Of a stretch of DNA of 54,960 nucleotides, positions 51,424-54,960 are shown piece by piece. The DNA comes from a virus. Its lineage: Duplodnaviria > Caudoviricetes. Within the stretch, counting starts at the first letter, position 1; each line of letters starts with the position of its first letter. Made by a program: the position numbers and the translations under genes. Location of the stretch: positions 1-54,960 of the IMG/VR virus record IMGVR_UViG_3300030090_005625; one strand, 5' to 3'. The notes beneath the pieces were generated by a model. That model did not search any database. It was not told the origin of the DNA and was given only the letters and a program-made list of their open reading frames with translations.

Positions 51424-51735
51424 ATGAAAGGAATACACAAATTAATAGTTACACTGCTCTTACTTATCACATTTGTTGATACATCACCAACAAAAACCAA
51501 ACCAACATTGATTACATTGAAACTCAATTCCTCCGAAATCGTAAACGATTCCGAAGGTAGAAAATCATTTGAAAGGCTCAAACCATCAAATCTATTTTTT
51601 ATATTTCCCAAGACCAAGTTCAAGCAAGACTACGTGGAGCACCTCAAGTTCGAGATACGTCAGCTCAACGATAACAGCTTTGAAATATTGGGTAGCCCAA
51701 TAGACTGGCCACAATATGAAGGGAGCGTGAAATGA
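51424..51735 (+). CDS. Hypothetical exported protein
   Basis: AGGA RBS; N-terminal signal-like hydrophobic stretch. Confidence 0.6.
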   Translation: MKGIHKLIVTLLLLITFVDTSPTKTKPTLITLKLNSSEIVNDSEGRKSFERLKPSNLFFIFPKTKFKQDYVEHLKFEIRQLNDNSFEILGSPIDWPQYEGSVK

Positions 51736-51845
51736 GCGAACGCGAGGAGGCAATCAATAGGGATTTGCTAATATTGATGATGCATAGACAACCCAATTTA
51801 ATCACGCGTCTTTGGTCAAGATGGATGAGGTGCGTGTCATGTTAA
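51732..51845 (+). CDS. 37-aa hypothetical peptide, not in ORF track
   Basis: GGAG RBS, ATGA overlap, MSEREEAINRDLLILMMHRQ... Confidence 0.4.
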   Translation: MSEREEAINRDLLILMMHRQPNLITRLWSRWMRCVSC

Positions 51846-52051
51846 CGCATAACATCGCTACAATCCTGAAGAACCTAATGGAGTACGCCGTCAACTCCAT
51901 GAAATCATTCTTGTTGTTCTTTAGTGTGGAGCACAACAAAATGGATTATAGCGATGACGATGACATTCATGAACCAGATGATGACTTCATGGAAGATGAT
52001 GGCGAGGATGACTTCGTGCAATACAAGGGGCCATACTGTGAGACTCCGTAA
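51839..52051 (+). CDS. Small protein with very acidic C-terminal tail
   Basis: In frame of ORF 51812..52051; start uncertain (51839 or 51941); tail MDYSDDDDIHEPDDDFMEDDGEDD. Confidence 0.5.
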   Translation: MLTHNIATILKNLMEYAVNSMKSFLLFFSVEHNKMDYSDDDDIHEPDDDFMEDDGEDDFVQYKGPYCETP

Positions 52052-52190
52052 TCAGATTAGAATCGTTAAGGTGATTTGGTTGGTGTGGATATGCTATATG
52101 GTATCGCTGATGGGTTGCGAGGATACATACGTGATGGGGTATAATAGCAATCTAGAGACGCTCGATACCGATAGTCTGTATGTGCAATGA
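52038..52190 (+). CDS. Small putative lipoprotein
   Basis: GTG start; MRLRNQIRIVKVIWLVWICYMVSLMGC lipobox; CED after Cys as in 49361..49888. Confidence 0.5.
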   Translation: MRLRNQIRIVKVIWLVWICYMVSLMGCEDTYVMGYNSNLETLDTDSLYVQ

Positions 52191-52258
52191 TTTGGTTATT
52201 CAAACGCGTGATGGATTGGATAGAGCAATTCAATACATGGGATGAGTAAAAAAGTTTT

Positions 52259-52486
52259 TTGCTCGAGCTCTGTTGGCCGATTCAAAACAAAGTTTTATTT
52301 CAATGCGTTCTATTTATAATTAATCCGAACGATTTCCAATCATGTGGTTTTGAACTGCATGGAATTAATAATCATCATTATCGTGACCTTGCTCTATTGG
52401 ACTTGGTTGATACGATACCTCAAGAAACACTAACCCACATTAAAAAGCAATACGTCGTTTTTGACACATTTATGGAGTTTTCATAG
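52259..52486 (+). CDS. Hypothetical protein (start uncertain)
   Basis: 75-aa ORF; nearest ATG (52242) is out of frame by one base across A6/T6 runs. Confidence 0.35.
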   Translation: MLELCWPIQNKVLFQCVLFIINPNDFQSCGFELHGINNHHYRDLALLDLVDTIPQETLTHIKKQYVVFDTFMEFS

Positions 52487-52491
52487 GTATG

Positions 52492-52581
52492 CCTACCACC
52501 TTTTCACAATCCCATTCCACAAACACTCCATAACACACCACTCCACTTCTACCCCCCATTCCCCATCTTTCCCCACCTTTT
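52492..52581. other. 90-nt G-free, C-rich tract (G-runs on minus strand)
   Basis: No G on the + strand from 52492 to 52581; C6, C4, C4 runs at 52552-52574. Confidence 0.85.
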
Positions 52582-52675
52582 GATATAGTTTATTACTGGA
52601 GGCCATCCAGAATATCCTGTTATAATATGGTGAAAACTAATACACGTCCGTGACGCCCGGAATTTTTTGCCCTAT

Positions 52676-52772
52676 ATGACGATTTGACATACTTGGATTA
52701 CCTACCCAGTTGATGACAAAATGACAAGCCTGTTATTTTTTTTGCTAATTTTCATGTATGTCATATTGTCAT
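52676..52772. repeat. Three bipartite ATGAC(A)-nn-nTGACA sites (two direct, one inverted)
   Basis: ATGACGATTTGACA 52676-52689, ATGACAAAATGACA 52713-52726, TGTCATATTGTCAT 52759-52772. Confidence 0.7.
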
Positions 52773-52786
52773 GTTGAGCAAAATAG

Positions 52787-52825
52787 AAAAAAGCTCTTGA
52801 CTTTTACTGGCTAATGTCGTATATT
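52787..52825 (+). promoter_or_regulatory. Early promoter P1
   Basis: AAAAAAGCTC-TTGACT(52797-52802)-N17-TATATT(52820-52825). Confidence 0.82.
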
Positions 52826-52891
52826 TGTATGTTGTGGGGTAGGCCTACTACCAGGCCAGTCCAAAAAAACGAAAAAAGCCGTGATTTTTTT

Positions 52892-52931
52892 AAAAAAGCT
52901 CTTGACTTGTATTGTGTGCATACCGTATATT
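52892..52931 (+). promoter_or_regulatory. Early promoter P2
   Basis: AAAAAAGCTC-TTGACT(52902-52907)-N18-TATATT(52926-52931)TAGGTAT. Confidence 0.82.
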
Positions 52932-52969
52932 TAGGTATGAAAAATGATAATAAAACAAAAGGAAACGAA

Positions 52970-53113
52970 ATGAACTACGAAGATTACATGGAATTACTTT
53001 CTGAAGAGATAGGCCAGTCACTTGAAATAGAAGCTATGGAAGAAGCGTTGTCTGATATGGAAGAGGAATATGGTAGTGAGACCGTCAACGATTATATGAA
53101 TTATGGTGTGTAA
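52970..53113 (+). CDS. 47-aa highly acidic early peptide
   Basis: AAAGGA RBS downstream of P2; 15 D/E and no K/R/H; the ORF-track extension to 52814 runs through promoters. Confidence 0.7.
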   Translation: MNYEDYMELLSEEIGQSLEIEAMEEALSDMEEEYGSETVNDYMNYGV

Positions 53114-53125
53114 TAAAAAAAAGTG

Positions 53126-53165
53126 AAAAAAGCTCTTGACACGTATACTGGTTATGTTGTATATT
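53126..53165 (+). promoter_or_regulatory. Early promoter P3
   Basis: AAAAAAGCTC-TTGACA(53136-53141)-N18-TATATT(53160-53165)TAGGTAT. Confidence 0.85.
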
Positions 53166-53185
53166 TAGGTATAAGATTTAGATGA

Positions 53186-53735
53186 GTGGAGAAGGTTTTG
53201 GGTTTCTCATTTCACCCGTTCTTTCCCTTCTCCACAAAAGATTCGAAAGACAAGAAGGGCGTTGATAGGAGATTAATCACCTCCTGAGTCTAATGGAGTT
53301 CTGAGAAACGAAGAGCTGATTACTTGAGTTTTGTTTGAGGGGCTGTAGGGTTCAAATCCCTACCTTGTCTACAAGATTTAAAATTAGAGAGCCGAAATAA
53401 TCCGTAAAGACATCGGCGGTGTGGTGAGACACTTGAAGTGGTATTCGTGATAGGGTTGAATTACGTACTAGAGACCCGAGACAGCCTCTCTTCTAAGTTT
53501 AAAGAGTAGTGGATAAACACCACAAACCCTAGAGCGATAATATCAAACGACGGAGCGTGAGGACTTCCCCACTACTCAAAGAATTAAACAACAAGTGGTG
53601 GGTAAATGGGATACCGACGCGTAGAGACATAGATACTGACGTGTTCCACCACGAAAATTTAGAGTAGTGGAGATATAACGGCTTGGTTCGAATCCAAGAG
53701 ACTTGCAATTTTAATAGGTGATTTCGGTCATCTAT
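53186..53735 (+). ncRNA. Array of structured non-coding RNA domains separated by A-rich linkers
   Basis: Closing stems GTGGAGAAGG/CCTTCTCCAC, AGACAAG/CTTGTCT, AGAGAG/CTCTCT, GAGTAGTGG/CCACTACTC, GTGGTGG/CCACCAC; two T-arm motifs; final TTCG hairpin; no + strand ORF of 60 aa or more. Confidence 0.65.
53248..53371 (+). ncRNA. Non-canonical tRNA-like RNA (124 nt)
   Basis: 7-bp acceptor-like stem + discriminator A; T-arm GTAGGG-TTCAAAT-CCCTAC; enlarged D-arm and no canonical 7-nt anticodon loop. Confidence 0.6.
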
Positions 53736-53782
53736 AAAATACTTATAATAAACAATCAAGCCTGTGAGGTAAAAAGCATTTT

Positions 53783-53953
53783 ATGACATCAGAACGAATA
53801 GACAACATGATAATGAAAGAAATAGTATACGATATAACGGCGGGTAACCTTTTGACCGACGCTGATGACGCAACACTCAGCATGATGTTGCAACACATGC
53901 AACACGTCAAGGAATACTTTCGAGAGAACGGGGTGATAATTGGAGAGGCATGA
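53783..53953 (+). CDS. 56-aa hypothetical protein, not in ORF track
   Basis: GAGGT RBS-like motif; MTSERIDNMIMKEIVYDITAGNLLTDADDATL... Confidence 0.55.
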   Translation: MTSERIDNMIMKEIVYDITAGNLLTDADDATLSMMLQHMQHVKEYFRENGVIIGEA

Positions 53954-54074
53954 CCCACCTGTACTAATTTGTCGTGAATCCAGAAGTATGTCATGCTGTC
54001 ATACGGCTCGGACTCGTCCGCATGTCGAGGTAAGCTTTTTCACCTATAGGAATTAATAAACATCGGTATCACAA

Positions 54075-54281
54075 GTGATAAACACTATTACTAAAACCAA
54101 GAAACTTAAACAATTAAATCTTGCTCAGTTCTATATCCAACTGGTGACAGCTGGTCTTTTTGCGTATTTATCCATACGTGACGCCGACATGGTCAAGATG
54201 TTGATTGCTTTCCTCTTGTTGCTTAGCTGGACATTGGGTTATTGGAGACATAGAATCGTTAGAAGAAGATTAATGAAATAG
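54075..54281 (+). CDS. Small two-TM membrane protein
   Basis: Two hydrophobic segments with basic ends. Confidence 0.6.
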   Translation: MINTITKTKKLKQLNLAQFYIQLVTAGLFAYLSIRDADMVKMLIAFLLLLSWTLGYWRHRIVRRRLMK

Positions 54282-54290
54282 GAGTTATGA

Positions 54291-54473
54291 ATGAGTAAAA
54301 AGAAATTAAAGGTTGGTGATTTCGTCTATCCAACATTACCAGGCGTCATGGAACCAGGTGACCCATGTTATGTTGTGGAAAAGATAGATGGTGATATGCA
54401 TACAATCGTTCAAACAATCAAGCACTACAAGAGCACGTTGGTCGTTCCCTCTAGTAAGCTCAGGAGGTTGTGA
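54291..54473 (+). CDS. Small SH3/KOW-like hypothetical protein
   Basis: AGGAG RBS; LKVGDFV start and beta-rich pattern. Confidence 0.6.
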   Translation: MSKKKLKVGDFVYPTLPGVMEPGDPCYVVEKIDGDMHTIVQTIKHYKSTLVVPSSKLRRL

Positions 54474-54718
54474 TGAGCATAATGGACGCGTTAAGGATTA
54501 TGTGCGAGTATTTCGATGATGATAGGGCACTAGGGGAGTACGTGCGTATGCTGACCGAGATACCGCAAGGGAGTTTGGATTTAAAGGAATTCAAAATGGA
54601 TTTATCGGACTTCAGAACTAAACATTTTGCGGATGATTTCCACGAGGGGAAGCAAACCCAGTCATTCACGCTGGATGAATTATTGAAAAACACAGGGATT
54701 ACCAAAAATGAACAATGA
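54470..54718 (+). CDS. Hypothetical protein
   Basis: AGGAGG RBS, overlap with upstream stop. Confidence 0.6.
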   Translation: MMSIMDALRIMCEYFDDDRALGEYVRMLTEIPQGSLDLKEFKMDLSDFRTKHFADDFHEGKQTQSFTLDELLKNTGITKNEQ

Positions 54719-54908
54719 TAATTATGACCCTCTTCTCTGGTATAAACAAACTATAGAGCGTATGTCTTGGGATGAGATACAGGATTTGATGACTGAACGA
54801 ATACAAAATGGTTCTTGGGATAATTTCGTCAAGACTCTGGGTAAACCACCACACGTTATAAAGCATGATTACTTCATAAAGCAGATGAACAAGGATAAAC
54901 ATGAATAA
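54708..54908 (+). CDS. Hypothetical protein
   Basis: 66-aa ORF overlapping neighbours. Confidence 0.55.
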   Translation: MNNDNYDPLLWYKQTIERMSWDEIQDLMTERIQNGSWDNFVKTLGKPPHVIKHDYFIKQMNKDKHE

Positions 54909-54960
54909 AAAAAAATTAACCTCACCGATTGACTCAATAGTTATAGACATGATACTTGAC

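Follow-up and report, generated by a model that had tools for sequence, protein, structure and literature searches.

Candidate small RNA genes arrayed behind an early-type promoter in an uncultured marine T4-like phage

Introduction

Bacteriophage T4 encodes two small RNAs that are not transfer RNAs (tRNAs), RNAC (species 1, 139 nucleotides (nt)) and RNAD (species 2, 119 nt), which have been described as being 'of yet unknown functions' and are classed as late RNAs (PMC9697503). On the T4 genome, rnaD lies 1 nt and rnaC 6 nt beyond the last tRNA gene on the same strand, and rnaC carries a T-arm, CCGGG-UUCGAAU-CCCGG, near its 3' end. The locus described here lies on the + strand of a viral contig (IMG/VR record IMGVR_UViG_3300030090_005625; Duplodnaviria, Caudoviricetes), whose 54,960 bases were all analysed and are referred to below as the window. 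Directly behind a promoter-like sequence, P3, the stretch 53166-53782 holds six helix-closed modules (A to F) and a UUCG-capped hairpin, with A/U-rich AAGAUUU-like linkers between them. The interpretation put forward, to which a probability of roughly 0.7 is attached, sees in the stretch an operon of accessory phage genes for small RNAs, a larger variant of the RNAC/RNAD kind.

Related arrangements are found in other phage elements. In the PeSL (promoter-early stem-loop) elements of T4-type phages, repeated early promoters reportedly mediate shuffling and flank small protein genes (PMC2839356; PMC4122927). Genes for transfer-messenger RNA (tmRNA) stand behind an early promoter in the OM43 phage Melnitz and in pelagimyophages, and Melnitz-like marine phages place a riboswitch together with tmRNA in this position (PMC9004378). 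Further, a catalogue drawn from IMG/VR intergenic regions offers 8,495 candidate structured 'DNAVirus_X' motifs, tRNA-like candidates among them, and its main text describes no array, shuffling or tRNA-slot context (PMC10690425). The families A-F, which are absent from Rfam, could be unnamed motifs of that catalogue, since D occurs on 6 IMG/VR contigs and could have passed its threshold of three regions. Limited keyword searching of the literature found no description of such arrays; what is new here is the RNA families themselves (D above all), the exchange of cassettes and the tRNA/tmRNA-derived members.

The array resembles T4 RNAC and RNAD in consisting of small non-tRNA RNAs of a T4-type phage. 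Module B shares with RNAC a tRNA-type T-arm near the 3' end (B and rnaC were compared by eye only), and module D, in the related loci L129, L134 and L142, lies head to tail with tRNA genes on the same strand, as the T4 RNAs do. Unlike the T4 site, the window has six units and no tRNA in 55 kb; no sequence likeness was found (D model against T4), the promoter is of an early type as opposed to the late class of the T4 RNAs, and the modules are reshuffled between close relatives. Similarly, the array shares with tRNA operons and phage tmRNA genes the helix-closed units, the short A/U-rich spacers and, in B and F, a T-arm with an acceptor-like helix, but ARAGORN and Rfam recognise none of the window's units as tRNA or tmRNA. 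Finally, it resembles PeSL cassettes in its repeated, near-identical early promoters within a variable region and in the exchange of units among close relatives. It differs from them in that the cassettes are RNA genes and the breakpoints are A/U-rich linkers, not promoter-terminator pairs; no terminator-like stem-loop was found on the + strand.

Promoter and lack of coding content

P3 (53126-53165, + strand) comprises an A-rich head, AAAAAAGCTC, a -35 element TTGACA at 53136-53141, an 18-nt spacer and a -10 element TATATT at 53160-53165. The promoter is near-consensus for the sigma-70 type and, with a score of 11/12, is the top of 17 promoter-like sites in 51500-54960; transcription is predicted to start near 53171-53174. 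Its head, AAAAAAGCTCTTGAC, occurs in three exact copies (52787, 52892 and 53126) and in six copies with at most two mismatches in the window, against an expected 0.21. Among 36 loci carrying D, 28 have a promoter of the P3 type on the strand of D and 9-488 nt upstream of it, and the remaining eight are five cut-off contigs and three arrays of a tRNA/tmRNA type.

The first-pass annotation of this DNA, made by a model from the letters alone, had claimed that no sizeable + strand open reading frame (ORF) follows P3, and this is correct: + strand ORFs within 53166-53782 span only 20-36 amino acids (aa), and no ORF is conserved. That the stretch encodes small proteins is next to inconceivable. The longest candidate, a 76-aa ORF on the - strand (53529-53759), does exist, and an indel that removes module E in a relative measures 75 nt, a multiple of three. 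However, this ORF starts with TTG, opposes the promoter and is not kept, as the arrays of L098 and L127 contain no ORF on either strand longer than 17 and 52 aa, respectively. Further, each of the six frames of module D contains a stop in 14-21 of its 21 sequences, and substitutions in D fall in paired columns without a three-base rhythm.

Architecture of the array

All six modules lie on the + strand. Module A (53186-53235) is a 10-base-pair (bp) helix, GUGGAGAAGG/CCUUCUCCAC, closing a 30-nt loop, rich in U and C, with a small hairpin inside it. Module B (53248-53371) is a 124-nt cloverleaf-like RNA with a 7-bp acceptor-like helix (53248-53254/53364-53370), two long arms, the second of which ends in a conserved 7-nt loop, CUGAUUA, and a T-arm, GUAGGG-UUCAAAU-CCCUAC, with a 6-bp stem at 53345-53363. 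Module C (53386-53491) is conserved over ~106 nt; an AGAGAG/CUCUCU closing helix is possible and a CCGA/UCGG hairpin is supported. In module D (53504-53577; 74 nt), a 9-bp closing helix, GAGUAGUGG/CCACUACUC, encloses a nearly invariant 56-nt interior. Module E (53595-53652; 58 nt) has a 7-bp closing helix, GUGGUGG/CCACCAC, and an inner helix of 7-9 bp. Module F (53662-53704) is a 43-nt mini tRNA-like unit, an acceptor/T-arm minihelix, in which GAGU is followed by an invariant connector of the AGUGGAGAUAUAAC type, the T-arm CUUGG-UUCGAAU-CCAAG (53682-53698) and AG-ACUU, which pairs back to GAGU.

The UUCG-capped hairpin, AUAGGUGAU-UUCG-GUCAUCUAU (53714-53735, + strand), is followed by TATAAAATACTTATAAT, which is promoter-like and contains a -10-like element, and by the ribosome-binding region of the next gene, GTGAGGTAAAAAG. 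The hairpin is not terminator-like in a terminator scan. Tails of the GTGAGGTAAAAA type end many related arrays. Read from the + strand sequence, the first linker is AAGAUUUAGAUGA (53173-53185), and further linkers lie at 53236-53247, 53371-53385, 53492-53503, 53578-53594 and 53653-53661; the six linker sequences are AAGAUUUAGA, AAAAGAUUCGAA, ACAAGAUUUAAAAUU, UCUAAGUUUAAA, AAAGAAUUAAAC and GAAAAUUUA. AAGATTT-like linkers also recur between the modules of related arrays.

A sequence check and minimum-free-energy folds placed the helices reported by the annotation in A, B, D, E, a second T-arm and the UUCG hairpin exactly where it had them. The second T-arm, at 53682-53698, has to be corrected in one respect, as it belongs to a small unit of its own, F. 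The multibranch fold proposed for C fared less evenly: its CCGA/UCGG hairpin shows a compensatory change, its CACT/AGTG helix is lost in relatives, and its closing helix is tentative. Compared with 200 dinucleotide shuffles, folding energies favour A (z = -4.5, with 0/200 as good) and the UUCG hairpin (z = -4.6), and do so moderately for D (-2.1), E (-1.9) and B (-1.5). For the whole stretch, z is -3.0 on both strands. Thermodynamics alone backs only some of the units.

Related loci

The homologue set of D comprises 35 loci besides the window and 21 distinct D sequences. A metagenome scan for D gave 37 stretches, and seven (L109, L114, L115, L116, L120, L122 and L125), with other spacing and unrelated flanks, were taken as chance and dropped before the counts. 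A pattern scan of viral contigs for D gave five contigs, or six IMG/VR contigs counting the window, in which D is a single copy according to a covariance model search. Across the 35 loci the units are conserved, structured and on the + strand, which bears out the annotation's proposal of separate units that are laid out like a tRNA operon and are not tRNAs.

A relative of the window's DNA polymerase is encoded in 177 of 181 candidate stretches from viral contigs, and identities range from 61 to 88% in the 80 loci that were kept. In blastn searches against 25 larger related records, matches of the stretch are confined to the promoter and parts of the array. D is 90-91% identical in G001, where the polymerase is 88% identical, and in G019, where D is 91% and the polymerase 61% identical. 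The covariance model of D, run over the window and the 80 polymerase loci (1.09 Mb), found only the window's own copy, and these loci mostly stop short of the array region.

Among cultured phages (50,697 records), blastn of 52700-54100 gave no match at E<=1e-5, and D alone gave only three chance matches of 18-25 nt at E<=10; the covariance model of D had no match in Microcystis phage Mel-JY01 or in the T4 genome (T4: E<=1). A search of bacterial species representatives with the D pattern returned four matches, which had the wrong spacing and unrelated sequence and were rejected as chance. Similarly, a pattern for the head of F found 10 stretches among viral contigs, of which eight were judged by eye to be chance (coding-like or unrelated) and two are true.

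Selection on RNA structure

Changes in the relatives follow the proposed pairing. D has 17 pairs that can be followed over the 21 sequences, and 97.8% of cells pair, compared with 31-53% after sliding the partners. Changes on both sides have occurred in four of the nine closing pairs and in one inner pair (18 cells), while the interior is almost invariant and of fixed length, the matched core being 55 nt in all but one sequence. In E (five sequences), four pairs of the inner helix have changed on both sides and 98.9% of cells are paired. In F (nine distinct sequences), three of the five T-stem pairs have changed on both sides (11 cells), 97.5% of cells are paired versus 18-49% when slid, and GAGU pairs with ACU(C/U) in 97% of cells. 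Three structures are thus backed by compensatory change and under selection, namely the helix that closes D, the inner one of E and the T-arm of F.

For B, A and C the same comparison gives thin support, because homologues are few. B is represented by three sequences (the homologues in L139 and L144 are 79% identical), in which three pairs have changed on both sides and the third acceptor pair is G-U in two relatives. A has one homologue, in L133 (82% identical), whose outer helix is unchanged and whose inner hairpin differs yet pairs. Among the four sequences of C, one pair has changed on both sides. The RNAs are placed on the + strand by G-U pairs in B (where there are many), E and F, by the orientation of the UUCRAAU T-loops and by the promoter. 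A pairing of F's GAGUAGUGG with the 3' strand of D was considered and rejected, as it shows no matching change when the helix of D changes.

Modules as exchangeable cassettes

Module orders were obtained by blastn of each window module against the oriented loci and by reading the arrays. The window has the order A-B-C-D-E-F. Elsewhere the order is (B)-C-D-F in L127, D-F in L098, D-E-F in L096, D-C-F in L132 and L141, D-C in L140, D ... B-F in L139 and L144, E-D in L117 and L118, F-D in L130, A-D in L133, and D ... E in L111 and L131, so that six or more different orders occur among these phages. Both flanks of L127 are 98.7-99.7% identical to the window, yet exactly E and one linker (75 nt) are missing there. 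C is 91-97% identical in L132, L141 and L140, where it comes after D and not before it. In addition, one contig assembled from an RNA library joins 53375 to 53583, bringing B directly next to E, and another contains B followed by a module absent from the window. The breakpoints lie at linkers in the E indel and in the RNA-library joint alike. These arrangements show that each unit evolves and moves as a cassette of its own, and that what is gained, lost or reordered is a module together with its linker.

This mobility bears on two other interpretations. A single ornate RNA of ~600 nt, of the GOLLD or ROOL kind, in place of several small ones would agree with the whole stretch folding better than its shuffles (z = -3.0), and large RNAs of this kind occur near tRNA genes in phages. 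However, each module closes on itself and is found in other orders and combinations, no large-RNA family of Rfam matches, and the - strand has the same z-score; this interpretation is very improbable. The modules could also be selfish or decaying cassettes, useless to the phage, that are remnants of tRNA and tmRNA genes or small mobile units that recombination at promoters and linkers has spread. Their quick gain, loss and reordering at linkers, the repeated near-identical promoters resembling PeSL cassettes and the tandem copies of a tmRNA pseudoknot in related arrays would all suit such an origin. Decay, on the other hand, would not keep the 56 interior positions of D nearly invariant across 61% polymerase identity, nor would it let the helices of D, E and F survive where both partners have changed, and mobility is compatible with function. 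Useless cassettes are therefore considered quite unlikely, and an operon of accessory RNA genes remains the preferred explanation.

Related arrays also hold families absent from the window, namely tandem H-type pseudoknots, a ~100-nt unit, a ~190-nt unit and a 73-nt tRNA-shaped unit. The ~100-nt module, GATG-stem-GAAGGCTGG...AATAGGTCTGAAA...CAAGTAGTA-stem-TTGA, usually follows D (L095-L099, L111-L113, L117-L119, L128, L131, L133 and L136), and the ~190-nt module, closed by GAGTGG/CCACTC, precedes D in L095, L113, L117 and L130; Rfam matches neither. Directly before D in L111, L112, L119 and L131 stands the 73-nt unit, with an ACCTCA/TGAGGT acceptor-like helix and a TTGGG-TTCGAAT-CCCAA T-arm, which is not called by ARAGORN. 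The free-standing pseudoknot, xGTGG-GTT(T/G)-stem2-(T)GA-CTACx-nATTTGGAA-stem2', comes in one to three tandem copies per array (21 distinct copies; L108, L111, L112, L113, L119, L121, L123, L128, L133, L139, L140 and L144). The outer pair of its stem 1 covaries (G-C, A-U, U-A), and its stem 2 exists in many complementary versions. The window contains no pseudoknot module of this tmRNA type.

Relation to tRNA and tmRNA genes

The window as a whole contains no tRNA or tmRNA gene according to ARAGORN, and it has no Rfam 15 match at the gathering score and none of relevance at E<=10. The tRNA family RF00005 gave no match in the window at either level, and tRNAs were detected by ARAGORN and Rfam in L129, L134 and L142. 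The sole match to the tmRNA family RF00023 in the window, at 53188-53237, scores 7.1 bits against a gathering score of 47, and ARAGORN finds no tmRNA. GOLLD, ROOL, HEARO, the glutamine riboswitch and the rest of Rfam 15 gave no match; over the 24 sources scanned, only tRNA and tmRNA were matched, and only in L129.

Parts of tRNAs are present nevertheless. A T-arm with a 5-bp stem and a 7-nt UUCRANY loop before the 3' acceptor strand is found in B and in F, and these are the sole two G+C-rich T-arm matches on the window's + strand. B lacks the standard D arm and anticodon stem and has arms of 35 and 48 nt instead; its 7-nt loop CUGAUUA has U at the place of purine 37. F lacks the D and anticodon arms, and a 14-nt connector takes their place. 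D, E, C and A have no tRNA features beyond the closing helix. Two known classes were tried for D and rejected. An 8/4 or 9/3 allo-tRNA (PMC5389517) would have a 3-bp T-stem with a 7-nt loop before the 9-bp helix, and by eye D has none; a glutamine riboswitch, as in Melnitz-like phages, found no Rfam match.

In the loci L129, L134 and L142 of a sister lineage (two distinct sequences), D is flanked by tRNA-Ala(UGC), ending 2-3 nt before it, and tRNA-Thr(UGU), starting 3 nt after it. These arrays continue with a tmRNA (Rfam, 107.8 bits) and tRNA-Glu(UUC). The last pseudoknot of the tmRNA in L129 and L134 is the same motif as the free-standing pseudoknot modules of other arrays. A contig with an array of this tRNA/tmRNA type encodes a CobS-like ATPase, 2OG-Fe(II) oxygenases and a Mom-like protein, which are typical of marine T4-like phages. 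With tRNA parts in B and F and D in a tRNA slot beside tmRNA, the array is an offshoot, lacking tRNAs, of the clusters of tRNA and tmRNA genes found in marine T4-like phages.

Among the roles suggested in the annotation were decoys or antitoxin mimics directed at host defences, and protein sponges. The idea of a type III antitoxin fits poorly, as it needs identical tandem repeats and 52700-53900 contains no tandem or near-identical tandem repeats of the ToxI kind, the promoters being the sole direct repeats there; neighbouring ORFs were not searched for a ToxN-like protein. A link to CRISPR fits no better, since the stretch lacks any CRISPR-like repeated unit. As for decoys, these results speak neither for nor against them.

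Proposed expression and function

Under the proposed mechanism, P3, as a strong promoter, would drive early synthesis of one ~600-nt precursor containing the six RNAs and probably running on into the small early genes downstream. Host enzymes would cut it most likely at the AAGAUUU-like linkers, just as bacterial tRNA operons are cut between their genes. In Escherichia coli, polycistronic tRNA precursors are taken apart by RNase E. This enzyme favours single-stranded RNA that has a uridine at the second nucleotide after the cut (PMC5222698), and most linkers contain a purine, any base and A/U-U-U, which fits the RN↓WUU preference. Cutting at linkers followed by trimming to the terminal helices would release the units, and the helices would protect the products from exonucleases; D between tRNAs could be released by the tRNA-processing enzymes. 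By analogy, the RNAs may then work in trans, with conserved factors of the host or the phage that deal with tRNA-like RNA as their targets.

The main competing view is that the stretch is a long structured 5' leader acting only in cis on the stability or translation of downstream early genes, with the modules as stabilising or regulatory domains. There is no terminator between F and the ORF at 53783 on the + strand. The same GTGAGGTAAAAA ribosome-binding tail, followed by a gene, closes related arrays, and a riboswitch together with tmRNA occupies the place behind an early promoter in Melnitz-like phages (PMC9004378). Against this view, the order and content of modules vary before the same downstream gene (six modules in the window, two in L098), D also occurs between tRNAs with no gene to regulate, and no riboswitch or leader of Rfam matches. 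A purely cis-acting leader is accordingly regarded as unlikely.

It should be noted that several observations weigh against the preferred interpretation of an operon of accessory RNA genes. The folds of F (z = -0.1) and C (z = +0.8) are no better than those of the 200 dinucleotide shuffles. The three C-A cells of D, as opposed to four G-U cells, mean that D alone leaves the strand unfixed. A, B and C have just 1-3 homologues each; the sole metagenome scan made was for D, and pattern scans of viral contigs for more B and C returned 0 and 0. The covariation score of D is matched by 0/500 shuffles, but covariation and shuffle counts take no account of sequence relatedness and therefore overstate significance; more reliance can be placed on the slid controls and on the number of distinct pair types. 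In the array, the linker motif reaches only ~3x its density in the rest of the A/T-rich window. As no terminator follows the array, it would also be the 5' leader of the next gene. Finally, parts of 53115-53383 and 53583-53656 occur at 99-100% identity in RNA-library contigs from three studies, but these are assembled contigs, carrying no RNA ends, amounts or timing, and some of them cover the promoter (from 53115-53142), so that DNA carry-over and read-through are inseparable. These contigs, from four runs, were picked by words of the stretch; their cover lies outside C, D, F and the flanking genes and is no gauge of expression.

A more speculative view, which is held to be rather unlikely, extends the operon into a cassette store of RNA tools made from tRNA and tmRNA parts, expressed first and occupying or misleading host factors that read tRNA-shaped RNA. 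Were this the case, the targets might include tRNA-cutting defence nucleases, trans-translation and processing enzymes. The AAGAUUU linker would double as an RNA cutting site and a DNA recombination site, and single RNA weapons could be swapped as fast as small anti-defence genes. As the most conserved cassette, D would have as its binding partner a factor that many hosts share.

The small RNAs beside the tRNA genes of T4 have been known for decades and are still unexplained. In marine T4-like phages of an abundant, uncultured group, such RNAs make up a whole repertoire, with at least six families in the window and several more in relatives. Structural selection on them is clear, they are exchanged as cassettes, and some consist of recognisable pieces of tRNA and tmRNA. 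They provide concrete, alignable families for tests, the best being D with its 74 nt, 21 variants and nearly invariant core. Further, the locus suggests a broader class of phage RNA genes, left blank by standard annotation with ARAGORN and Rfam, of which tRNA clusters are only the part that can be seen.

Phage lineage and neighbouring genes

The window takes in an entire 54,960-base viral contig, to which CheckV gives a completeness of 11%. Its G+C content is ~32%, and nearly all its long ORFs are on the + strand. Among the encoded proteins are a family B DNA polymerase, a DnaB-like helicase, ribonucleotide reductase and proteins resembling glycosyltransferases. Judged by the polymerase, the nearest cultured relative is Mel-JY01 (45% identity), and identity to T4-like cyanophages is ~33%. 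Together with the polymerases of the viral contigs, these values place the window in an uncultured marine lineage of T4-like phages. Between 16500 and 49000 lies a run of ~25 successive + strand ORFs of 215-550 aa; the few ORFs scanned in this range resemble glycosyltransferases or methyltransferases, which would be a large sugar-modification block for a phage.

The first gene downstream of the array (53783-53953, + strand) is an ORF of 56 aa that is probably on the array's transcript. L098/L137 (at 70% nucleotide identity), L111 and L127 also have it behind their arrays. Between the small genes further downstream, L127 carries ~490 nt (its positions 924-1412) that are extra relative to the window at 54279, a cassette-like indel.

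Upstream of the array, a 14-bp inverted repeat, ATGACAAAATGACA ... TGTCATATTGTCAT (13/14 complementary), lies at 52713-52772, just before the first of three promoters; it gave spurious weak microRNA matches in Rfam, and a similar inverted repeat precedes the arrays of L117 and L136. At 52787-52938, no more than ~60 nt lie between the first promoter, P1, and the second, P2; they contain a GGTAGGCCTACTACC hairpin with an A/T-rich tail and may be a further very short RNA or a terminator. P2 in turn drives an acidic ORF of 47 aa (52970-53113), which L108, L112 and L128 keep in front of their arrays. In L117 and L136, the gene-free stretch contains, ahead of the RNA array, a ~75-nt unit (CGGACTAGTCGGATAGTGGGCGTTAGTA...AACAAAAGAACA) in three tandem copies with a promoter on either side.

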